A DNA stretch of 25,930 nt from assembly GCA_902384455.1 (NCBI GenBank), contig CABMCB010000074.1:1-25930 (forward strand), in the 5' to 3' direction. The notes beneath the pieces are model-generated. The model was not told where the DNA came from. It searched no databases and saw only the letters and a program-made list of their open reading frames with translations. This document shows, one piece after another, positions 5,635 through 9,519 of this stretch (its first letter is position 1; every line of letters begins with the position of its first letter). The DNA is from an uncultured archaeon. GTDB lineage: Archaea; Altiarchaeota; Altiarchaeia; IMC4; SCGC-AAA252-I15. Both the position numbers and the translations under genes were made by a program.

Positions 5635-5723
5635 TTTTGTGCTCTTTGCTTTTTTTTTCCTCCGTTTTTGTTTTAACGGCCCGCGCCGTTTTTTTTTTGT
5701 TCGACGCGTTTTTGAGCCGTTTA

Positions 5724-5843
5724 TCCCGCCTCCCGGATTTGAACCGGGGATCTTCCGGTGGCCGCTGGTTATGCGGAAAACAGCTTATAGTACTGTTTGC
5801 CCAACTACAGCCAGACGCGATAACCAGGCTACGCCAAGGCGGG
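5724..5843 (-). tRNA. tRNA-Tyr (GTA) with a 45-nt intron at 37/38 (intron 5760..5804)
   Basis: Acceptor CCCGCCT/AGGCGGG-A (archaeal C1-G72), T-arm CCCGG-TTCAAAT-CCGGG; BHB: CTGT pairs with GCGG, 3-nt bulges AG|T and CC|A. Confidence 0.95.
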
Positions 5844-5870
5844 ATTAGCTTACAATATACACTTCGTCTC

Positions 5871-9196: not shown

Positions 9197-9204
9197 TTAT
9201 AAAG
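9197..9204 (+). promoter_or_regulatory. Probable TATA box of the tRNA-Met locus
   Basis: TTATAAAG, 34 nt before the first GCCGAAGTAGCTCAG copy (9239); no equally good box immediately before 9338. Confidence 0.45.
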
Positions 9205-9238
9205 TCTGCTTCCATCGTCCTATTCACCCAACAAAACC

Positions 9239-9352
9239 GCCGAAGTAGCTCAGGAACCTTTTTCTTTCTTTAGGAAAGAAAGAAAAACGTTCACGAAAAA
9301 GAAAGAAAACAACAAAACCAAAAAAACACATAAAAAAGCCGAAGTAGCTCAG
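9239..9352 (+). repeat. 15-bp direct repeat of the tRNA-Met 5' end flanking an 84-nt insert
   Basis: GCCGAAGTAGCTCAG at 9239-9253 and 9338-9352, identical. Confidence 0.95.
9254..9308 (+). repeat. Hairpin + mirror-repeat element, copy A (potential intrastrand triplex)
   Basis: TTTTTCTTTCTTT (9259-9271), loop AGG, AAAGAAAGAAAAA (9275-9287), spacer CGTTCACG, AAAAAGAAAGAAA (9296-9308). Confidence 0.85.
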
Positions 9353-9519
9353 TTGGTTAGAGCGCCAGACTCATAAGCAGAACCCCTTTTCTTTTTGAGA
9401 AAAAGAAAAGGTGTTTCATCCCCAAAAGAAAAAAACTTTTGGCGGGCGCAAGAAATGCTGGGACTTCAAGATAACGCTGAGTTATCTGGAGGCCGCGTGT
9501 TCAAGTCACGCCTTCGGCA
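9338..9519 (+). tRNA. Elongator tRNA-Met (CAT) with a 108-nt intron at 37/38 (intron 9376..9483)
   Basis: GCCGAAG/CTTCGGC-A acceptor, anticodon stem CCAGA/TCTGG, T-arm GCGTG-TTCAAGT-CACGC; BHB: CTCA pairs with TGAG, bulges TA|A and TT|A; G1-C72 and no triple G-C anticodon stem argue against initiator. Confidence 0.92.
9380..9433 (+). repeat. Hairpin + mirror-repeat element, copy B, inside the tRNA-Met intron
   Basis: CCTTTTCTTTTT (9385-9396), loop GAG, AAAAAGAAAAGG (9400-9411), spacer, AAAAGAAAAA (9424-9433). Confidence 0.85.

Follow-up and report, generated by a model that had tools for sequence, protein, structure and literature searches.

A dispersed repeat unit with a mirrored third arm, of putative intrastrand-triplex type, at an archaeal tRNA(CAT) gene and elsewhere

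A tRNA gene with the anticodon CAT, interrupted by a long intron, lies in a stretch of 25,930 nucleotides (nt) from an uncultured archaeon of the Altiarchaeota (contig CABMCB010000074.1, assembly GCA_902384455.1, forward strand; all coordinates are positions in this stretch, hereafter called the window). It is accompanied by two copies of a short repeat unit, copy A in the leader and copy B in the intron, each composed of a pyrimidine (Y) arm, a complementary purine (R) arm and a third arm that mirrors the purine strand (Table 1). Rfam places the tRNA at 9338-9519 with 57.5 bits and 110 additional bases past the anticodon. The gene was missed by ARAGORN in a default run and was reported as tRNA-Met (CAT) with a 108-nt intron when long introns were permitted; the CAT anticodon of the host tRNA may stand for Met or for Ile2. 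The intron that hosts copy B has the predicted features of an archaeal bulge-helix-bulge, namely position 37/38, a 4-bp helix (CUCA 9370-9373 with UGAG 9479-9482) and 3-nt bulges on either side. This motif was read by hand and is absent from the RNAfold minimum-energy structure.

Copy A is situated in the tRNA leader between two copies of a 25-nt sequence, the right one of which is split by 18 A-rich bases: 9239-9253 (15 nt) is identical to 9338-9352 and 9229-9238 (10 nt) to 9310-9319. The TATA-like sequence TTATAAAG stands 35-42 nt 5' of the left copy of the tRNA 5' end (9239), and TTTAAATA upstream of the neighbouring tRNA-Tyr has the identical spacing to its gene. Because the spacing of TTATAAAG fits the left repeat as at tRNA-Tyr, we infer that the tRNA gene originally began at 9239; TTATAAAG is the probable promoter of the whole copy A/tRNA unit. 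In the single sequencing run listed, one of environmental DNA with no RNA run alongside it (0.07 share of words), contig pieces begin and end at 9256/7-9308/11, matching the limits of copy A. This run gave no empty-site evidence for copy A, its coverage comprising the tRNA and the units only, on contigs of other organisms. A scan for sigma-70 promoters and intrinsic terminators, whose models are not applicable to archaea, returned only the copy B hairpin.

Table 1 Features of the tRNA locus and of the two repeat units, in window coordinates.
Feature	Position	Strand	Basis
TATA-like box TTATAAAG, candidate promoter for the entire unit	9197..9204	+	read from sequence
Left copy of 25-nt direct repeat (10 nt leader + tRNA bases 1-15)	9229..9253	+	exact string match
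Copy A, 56-nt unit	9254..9309	+	exact strings, RNAfold, matches in other genera
Copy A, lower stem	9254-9257 / 9289-9292	+	RNAfold
Copy A, mismatch (C and C)	9258 and 9288	+	RNAfold
Copy A, Y arm (T5-C-T3-C-T3)	9259-9271	+	exact string
Copy A, loop	9272-9274	+
Copy A, R arm	9275-9287	+	exact string
Copy A, linker	9293-9295	+
Copy A, mirror R arm	9296-9308(9)	+	exact string
Right copy of 10-nt leader repeat (9310-9319), then 18-nt A-rich insert (9320-9337)	9310..9337	+
tRNA exon 1 (anticodon CAT); first 15 nt = right repeat copy	9338..9375	+	Rfam, ARAGORN
tRNA intron, position 37/38, 108 nt	9376..9483	+	Rfam, ARAGORN; boundary uncertain by one A
Copy B, within the intron, starting five bases past the 5' splice site	9380..9435	+
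Copy B, lower stem with a G.U pair	9380-9383 / 9413-9416	+	RNAfold
Copy B, clamp (CC / GG)	9385-9386 / 9410-9411	+
Copy B, Y arm (T4-C-T5)	9387-9396	+	exact string
Copy B, loop	9397-9399	+
Copy B, R arm	9400-9409	+	exact string
Copy B, linker	9417-9423	+
Copy B, mirror arm	9424-9433(5)	+	exact string
Short fourth segment, complementary to 9422-9428 (start of arm 3)	9436..9442	+	RNAfold
tRNA exon 2	9484..9519	+	Rfam, ARAGORN

An initial annotation, made from the letters of the window, had described both copies, and reading of the exact strings located every arm where it had been placed. The order of the unit is a 4-bp lower stem, a 1x1 mismatch, a Y/R stem of 8-13 bp, a 3-nt loop, a short linker and the 3' mirror purine arm. 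The Y/R stems are perfect over 13 bp in copy A and over 10 bp plus the 2-bp clamp in copy B. The annotation had also listed GAACC and GTT(T)CA as landmarks, the latter in the spacer; both are present, but they are not a separate spacer motif and instead form the two halves of one lower stem, in which GAAC pairs with GTTC (copy A) or GTTT (copy B) over the 1x1 mismatch in RNAfold, a tool whose model comprises Watson-Crick and G.U pairs only. The core measures about 50-70 nt and reaches about 150 nt where the spacer holds additional hairpins. Between stem and third arm, this second spacer has 8 nt in copy A and 14 nt in copy B, and it either ranges over 8-14 nt or holds 50-115 nt of hairpins. 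The third arm is retained over long spacers of 58-67 nt, and over about 118 nt in one case. On the strand shown the layout is that of a class II (purine-motif) intrastrand triplex, and on the complement that of class III (T.A-T / C+.G-C).

The hairpins occur far beyond chance. The initial annotation had proposed a pattern search against shuffled sequence, and such a search for all-Y/all-R hairpins of at least 9 bp gave 30 strand hits (15 loci) in the genome of the window versus 0, 0 and 0 in three local shuffles; in a complete relative, hairpins of at least 8 bp gave 76 strand hits versus 0, 0 and 4. Of 61 genomes of the phylum, 23 contain the exact three-arm pattern of one subfamily, with 94 matches in total, and none contains the reversed pattern; the order is therefore Y-R-R on one strand and Y-Y-R on its complement in every case.

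Whether the third arm is a mirror image or a direct repeat of the purine strand is a finer question, since an exact 8-mer three-arm scan cannot tell the two apart in symmetric cores such as A3-G-A3-G-A3. In copy A the mirror accounts for 13/13 positions versus 12/13 for the direct repeat, and in copy B for 10/12 versus 9/12 with the CC clamp included. Larger samples were compared by a run-length parser; mismatch-tolerant hairpin finders slip register in periodic arms and return spurious T:G and C:A counts. A covariance model, as proposed by the initial annotation, has no means of encoding the parallel relation between arms 1 and 3, and arms of low complexity align poorly. The run-length sample comprised 402 distinct Y/R hairpins from the genome of the window and all fetched loci, 205 of them with a third A/G tract. 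In 113 of these 205, agreement with the outer run of arm 1 was confined to the first run of arm 3, and in 8 to its last run; both runs agreed in 42 and neither did in the other 42. Vectors of run lengths were repeated in the same 5'-3' order, (4,3,3) 15 times and (3,3,4) 11 times, and (5,3,4), (4,5), (3,4), (5,1,4) and (3,1,3) were likewise kept in order in arm 3. A test within a single subfamily gave 87 mirror versus 32 direct out of 126. Since copies are akin, such counts overstate independence, and it is more informative to count distinct arm patterns.

Samples that were collected by their hairpin, without presupposing a third arm, point in the same direction. The mirror was better than the direct repeat at 9, tied at 4 and worse at 2 of the 15 loci of the window's genome, and better at 16, tied at 8 and worse at none of 24 loci of the complete relative. 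The same hairpins taken in the opposite orientation scored only 3-7 of 8-13 (window's genome). Orthologues of copy B in the introns of relatives have all three arms altered together, for example to T3-C-T4 / A4-G-A3 / A3-G-A4, and in bacterial analogues with arms of 23-26 nt the mirror is kept without error. At the level of sequence, these comparisons show that the third arm is a mirror and not a direct repeat of the purine strand and that the three arms covary, as the initial annotation had proposed from its two copies and as the run-length tests and the 94 versus 0 of the pattern test now bear out. Neither of the two refuting outcomes named in the initial annotation that can be looked for in sequence, a lack of further copies beyond chance and a third arm without covariation, was observed. 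The comparative data show that a three-arm fold is under selection.

The lower stem is part of this conserved architecture. It scores at least 3.5/4 in 49 of 93 distinct archaeal units versus 268 of 1860 with shuffled partners, and compensatory forms (CAAC/GTTG, GAAC/GTTC, GAAA/TTTC, TAAC/GTTA and others) are found. Its pairs include 17 G.U versus 5 A.C in the 93 units, an excess which favours folding of the strand shown, i.e. the transcribed strand. Two further regularities were noted around the arms. The 2-4 G/C bases 5' of arm 1 recur, unchanged and uncomplemented, 5' of arm 3 (81 archaeal units), their last 3 nt being identical in 39 of 81 units versus a shuffled-partner mean of 15.5 and maximum of 26; a simple purine-motif register does not account for this recurrence. 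Spacer modules of two to four short hairpins between stem and third arm occur at G000 C19:2625-2740, C94:47754-47880 and C71:134503-134600 and in G026 at 152236, 394679, 701781 and 1132973. They are near-identical across units with differing arms, so that they resemble a further family of small repeats residing within this one.

The family is widely dispersed, as had been suspected. By BLAST, the 341-nt locus was matched in all 41 genomes searched. Matches to the unit only were obtained in at least 25 of 40 relatives, with up to 100% identity over the 56 nt (query 65-120) in another genus, and at least 119 stretches of public genomes contain the unit. Among the matches listed, record titles name Iainarchaeota/Diapherotrites, Micrarchaeota, Aenigmatarchaeota, Woese-/Nanoarchaeota, Altiarchaeota, ANME-1 and 'Methanobacteriota', and also bacteria, chiefly rumen Selenomonadaceae. 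The bacterial units, with 2-nt loops, 4-nt spacers and some arms of 23-26 nt, are a separate lineage; they start a few nt past stop codons, and some form convergent pairs in intergenic positions. Many class II units with arms up to 26 nt were seen in rumen Selenomonadaceae, other Clostridia and a metagenome-assembled genome of the Spirochaetota (L056, L078 and about 40 other bacterial loci), with conserved hairpins downstream; no Rfam family matches these units. A conserved stretch with GGATTAACCTAAAACTG follows units in three genomes of different families (G000 C94 at about 47890-47915; L020; G026 near 806900).

The initial annotation had further tied the element to tRNA genes. This holds in the window's genome, where 13 of the 15 loci are found at 12 of 47 tRNA genes (those outside three tRNA arrays), but only weakly in the complete relative (1.39 Mb), where 4 of 38 loci lie near the 23 tRNAs called. 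The 13 tRNA-linked copies are all in sense; 8 follow the discriminator base directly, 2 reside in 37/38 introns and 3 in leaders after a duplicated 5' fragment. The tRNA genes of this genome that lack a unit are followed by a T6-T9 tract, at the position that arm 1 occupies in genes with a unit. Of the 38 loci of the complete relative, 31 are intergenic (by a crude call of open reading frames (ORFs); 84% of the genome is coding), several of them 2-25 nt past a stop codon, and among its 24 oriented copies 15 are co-oriented with both neighbours, 5 opposed to both and 4 mixed. In the fetched loci, 128 units were classified by their position relative to called tRNAs: 27 are in sense in introns, 14 in sense at most 15 nt from a tRNA 3' end and 5 in sense in leaders, 9 are antisense (5 of them at most 15 nt upstream of a tRNA 5' end), and 72, which include the bacterial units and tRNAs missed by ARAGORN, have no called tRNA within 150 nt. 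Among the tRNA-linked copies of the fetched loci, 47 are sense and 9 antisense. Individual subfamilies are represented in trailers, introns and leaders alike, at different tRNAs, which means that units have changed context. At orthologous tRNA-Met loci the upstream 5' fragment is present in 4 of 11 and the intron unit in all, decayed or shrunken in some genera.

Several other features of tRNA genes were recorded alongside. A DPANN-type tRNA at L082:3760-4010, uncalled by ARAGORN, apparently carries units in D-loop and T-loop introns as well as an intron in the anticodon region. An intron-bearing tRNA on the minus strand of the window at 5723-5844, for which ARAGORN gives Gly(TCC) at default settings and, with introns permitted, Tyr(GTA) with an intron of 45 nt, has no repeat unit within its intron. 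Upstream of several tRNAs (G000 C23 and C71:84405 upstream regions; L003, L004, L012) stands a 'minihelix' of 5' acceptor strand, hairpin and 3' acceptor strand with discriminator base, as if a tRNA gene had been reduced to its acceptor stem. Three dense arrays of 22-39 intronless tRNA genes, G000 C4 (2065-9860), C38 (18856-28629) and C59 (49310-58891), make up most of the 136 tRNAs called in the 2.4-Mb bin, and their contigs look foreign (viral or bacterial) or mis-binned.

Signatures of insertion accompany many copies. Flanking direct repeats of at least 12 nt were found at 8 of the 15 loci of the window's genome (one represents a neighbouring paralogous tRNA-Ser and is to be discounted) and at 10 of the 24 oriented loci of the complete relative versus 42 of 3000 random positions. 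Arm 1 starts 5-9 nt past the end of the left repeat, and the repeats of 13-30 nt correspond to 5' parts of tRNAs, to their 3'-terminal 20-21 nt or to the starts of protein genes. In one protein gene, at G000 C18:70961-71330 (L140), the unit divides the 5' end of dapF between perfect 27-nt repeats. A 19-codon fragment of the dapF start precedes the unit at this locus, its frame stops inside the unit's spacer, and the full ORF begins 5 nt past the third arm. Orthologous dapF loci have no unit and a single N-terminus in the six parsed of 14 fetched. The complete relative moreover contains three copies of about 150 nt that are 97-99% identical, each with four extra spacer hairpins, a subfamily of at least six near-identical units and three instances of tandem arrays of fragment plus unit; in one unit of about 150 nt the perfectly mirrored third arm lies about 118 nt away. 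The suggestion of the initial annotation that the element is possibly mobile gains support from the 13-30-nt flanking target repeats and the near-identical copies.

On this basis the comparisons show a repeat of fixed polarity that is dispersed over an archaeal phylum and beyond, with many copies bounded by direct repeats of 13-30 nt. We propose, as a reading about as apt to prove right as wrong, that it is a structure-constrained, non-autonomous insertion element of intrastrand-triplex type whose propagation depends on its fold. The units would spread by insertion in uncultivated archaea, and the folded single strand, hairpin plus third arm, would be kept by selection because it is needed for propagation, recognised or stabilised as a folded strand. 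Copies would survive where genes stay unbroken, i.e. in tRNA introns, leaders and trailers and at gene ends. At the present locus, copy B would be an old resident of the intron, common to the whole family of relatives, and copy A a later arrival whose insertion into the start of the tRNA gene produced the 25-nt duplication; transcription of the tRNA would now begin at the original promoter and run across copy A. Persistence of the third arm behind long structured spacers makes it probable that the fold is one of a single strand, and the orientation of the copies together with the lower-stem G.U pairs favours the transcribed strand.

A number of observations weigh against this proposal. Flanking repeats are missing at 7 of 15 loci in the window's genome and at 14 of 24 in the complete relative. 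At dapF and at a second protein gene, a perfect zone of 27-30 nt beside the unit is followed outward by a diverged zone, and such two-zone repeats fit better with att-type recombination or conversion than with simple target duplication. An arrangement of tRNA-Leu, unit, tail and 3' fragment recurs in two families, which implies that some 'insertions' are old or maintained; the intron copy, being orthologous across the family and shrunken in some genera, shows no recent mobility. No mobilising enzyme was found in searches for Y1 transposase, Cas1 and reverse transcriptase: there was no Y1 transposase in the window's genome, Cas1 in 0 of 5 genomes searched, and reverse transcriptase in 1 of 5, with none in the complete relative that bears the near-identical copies. 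The sole reverse transcriptase hit, group-II-intron-like and on a 3.2-kb contig of the window's genome (G000 C67:1020-2069), reached 166 bits, below the 300-bit cut-off; five tyrosine-recombinase hits were obtained in the window's genome. Insertion of casposon or Cas1 type was dropped since Cas1 was not found in the five genomes, and retroposition since the complete relative has no reverse transcriptase. No terminal inverted repeats were seen by eye.

The fold itself meets objections as well. Of the 17 lower-stem G.U pairs, 13 come from two subfamilies. No mismatch of either kind was found in 140 main stems, partly owing to the selection of stems, and the G.U test of the working strand therefore depends on the lower stem alone. 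Part of arm 3 of copy B (9422-9428) can alternatively pair with 9436-9442, a pairing that covaries in the orthologues L002-L007 as judged by eye, and type A units leave just 3 nt between lower stem and arm 3, which is tight for a fold-back. The A.A-U chemistry of the transcribed strand is doubtful, whereas the complement would give a strong T.A-T or U.A-U triplex. Purine-motif triplexes are, according to Holder et al. (2015, PMC4666352), driven by G.G-C triplets and do not form in RNA, whereas the present arms are A-rich.

Three alternatives deserve consideration, none of which is mutually exclusive with a mobile origin. The unit may act in RNA as an end-protection or processing module, MALAT1/ENE-like in function, in which the hairpin and the A-rich 3' arm form a triple-stranded cap that shields the end from exonucleases; it would be transcribed with its host gene and freed by RNase Z cleavage past the discriminator base, by the splicing endonuclease in introns and by RNase P in leaders. 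We hold this to be unlikely, albeit worth serious attention. Copies are mostly co-directional with transcription (47 sense versus 9 antisense in the fetched loci, 13/13 in the window's genome, 15 versus 5 in the complete relative), the unit begins 1-10 nt past a processing site, bacterial analogues begin a few nt past stop codons, and the G.U pairs of the lower stem favour the transcribed strand. At five DPANN loci a reversed unit lies at most 15 nt upstream of the tRNA 5' end, giving the order U-rich, U-rich, A-rich, tRNA, which is the order in MALAT1. The sense-strand RNA, however, offers one U-rich and two A-rich arms and is not of the U.A-U type, the reported failure of purine-motif RNA triplexes to form (Holder et al. 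2015) applies to it, and the flanking target repeats and the insertion inside dapF are left unexplained.

The second alternative, a transcription terminator or insulator, is in our view clearly improbable. The oligo-T of arm 1 would stop outgoing polymerase and the T-rich arms of the other strand incoming polymerase, the stop being reinforced by the hairpin or by a triplex of H-DNA type. Archaeal oligo-T terminators consist of at least five T immediately behind a gene. The T6-T9 tracts of unit-less tRNA genes at the position of arm 1 are consistent with such a role, as are the 31 of 38 intergenic loci of the complete relative, several of them 2-25 nt past a stop codon, and the convergent bacterial pairs between genes; H-DNA is, moreover, classically associated with purine mirror repeats (Holder et al. 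2015). Against this role, the T5 of copy A and the T4 and T5 of copy B precede sequence that is essential for the tRNA, 27 of the 128 fetched units are sense copies within introns, and the T runs are just 3-5 long and interrupted. Termination requires T-richness and not an exact three-way covariation, and the retention of the third arm over spacers of 58-118 nt is unfavourable for H-DNA.

We regard it as still more doubtful that the unit is a remnant or miniature attachment (att) site of integrative elements at gene ends, i.e. the folded-strand part beside an att core. The flanking repeats would then be attL and attR, and their diverged outer zone a replacement gene end brought by the element. 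The two-zone repeats at dapF and the second protein gene, the repeats over the last 20-21 nt of tRNAs, a classic integrase target, and the five tyrosine-recombinase hits argue for it. Against it stand the only 56-250 nt between the repeats at every locus, the lack of an integrase gene adjoining any copy examined, the need for a matching core at each target and the intron copies without repeats. Low-complexity sequence arising by chance, or an ordinary A/T-rich hairpin with an A-rich tract downstream that is unrelated to it, has next to nothing in its favour beyond the blindness of the 8-mer scan to mirror versus direct in symmetric cores, and it is contradicted by the shuffle controls, the reversed-pattern control and the asymmetric arms.

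For the proposed insertion element, the comparative evidence has consequences beyond this locus. The exact three-way covariation over dozens of arm variants is the strongest evidence for a selected three-stranded fold that comparison can give without bench work. Previous intrastrand triplex motifs were enigmatic G/C-rich repeats in few bacteria, and the present family is A-rich. Units in tRNA introns, leaders and trailers with insertion signatures make the origin of archaeal tRNA introns and fragments directly testable. A bolder reading, which we put forward tentatively and consider unlikely, is that the units are vehicles of archaeal tRNA intron gain and tRNA fragmentation, recognised through a triple-stranded fold of one strand and inserted, with a long duplication of the target, at gene ends and in the D-, anticodon and T-loops; in this case copy A would be a proto-intron just after insertion and the triplex a cross-domain mobilisation signal. 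If so, the parallel families of rumen bacteria would make the intrastrand triple helix a general signal of this kind in both domains. Independently of this, the family provides a natural set of variants for the biophysics of A.A-U/T and T.A-T triplexes and a marker that is now overlooked in the annotation of DPANN, Altiarchaeota and related genomes.

The initial annotation knew of no such family at tRNA genes, and none was found in Rfam 15 or the open-access literature for an A-rich, tRNA-linked archaeal repeat; the ITxF supplementary lists, which may include some A/T-rich archaeal motifs, lay outside this survey. Rfam 15 returned nothing but tRNA at gathering score in the window and at 14 loci, and noise only in a permissive scan, and the open-access literature on archaeal tRNA introns, trailers, triplexes and miniature elements held nothing on point. 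A C/D-box or H/ACA guide RNA was dropped, as no boxes were present and a TGATGA-like spacer was not conserved; so was a split or permuted tRNA, the full gene being present. The family is apparently undescribed; its general class has been published for G/C-rich repeats of bacteria (Holder et al. 2015, PMC4666352). The portion of that work considered here defines four intrastrand triplex classes, describes the TMECO/BoxC/PIT repeat as G/C-rich (citing Hoyne et al. 2000), regards A/T-rich motifs as largely due to chance, gives the ITxF search rule with loops of 1-6 nt and contains no mention of tRNA. Judged by its class II, the present units have the Y block, the complementary R block and the mirrored third block. 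Their first loop has 3 nt and their second spacer 8 or 14 nt, the latter beyond the limit of 1-6 nt, and ITxF as described there would skip both copies.

Like the BoxC/PIT/TMECO repeats of Holder et al. (2015), the present family is a dispersed intergenic class II repeat (Y block, loop, R block, loop, mirror R block) with a class III complement and is tied to local rearrangement. TMECO, as characterised in that paper, combines a G/C-rich sequence with stems of 9 nt and a second loop of 3 nt, occurs only in Proteobacteria and has no lower stem. The units described here do not follow the G/C-rich consensus with 9-nt stems; they have A/T-rich arms of 8-13 nt with isolated C/G (23-26 nt in the bacterial analogues), a 4-bp lower stem, a longer second spacer, archaeal hosts, a location in tRNA introns and flanks, and target repeats of 13-30 nt.

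In comparison to ENE/MALAT1 triple helices, the tRNA-sense strand has one U-rich and two A-rich arms, and the composition of two U-rich strands and one A-rich strand is found on the complement, i.e. the antisense strand, alone. In ENE/MALAT1 the A-rich 3' tract is clamped on a U/A helix (U.A-U), the MALAT1 helix adjoins a tRNA-like RNase P site, and ENE-like structures are present in transposable-element RNAs. Transposed tRNA introns and leaders of split tRNAs in archaea have reportedly been described by Fujishima and co-workers, with related sequence at different tRNA positions and flanks. The unit differs from these in being discrete and in occurring also at protein-gene ends, in intergenic DNA and outside the Thermoproteales. 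GAA.TTC 'sticky DNA' is an A-rich purine mirror sequence with A.A-T and G.G-C triplets in DNA, formed by long tandem repeats in duplex, whereas the present unit is short and includes a pyrimidine partner within its own strand.

REP/BIME-type repeats and miniature inverted-repeat transposable elements (MITEs) are short, non-coding, structured, multi-copy and intergenic, form subfamilies per genome and can be nested. The present units share this general character, being short, structured, multi-copy, organised in subfamilies and nestable. As in MITEs and other non-autonomous elements there are many short non-coding copies, some of them near-identical, and target-site duplications are found, although unusually long, variable (13-30 nt) and absent at about half of the loci. 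Unlike REP/BIME repeats and MITEs, which they resemble in these respects, the units show no terminal inverted repeats to the eye, are flanked by long target repeats of variable length and are defined by a three-arm fold instead of a palindrome.

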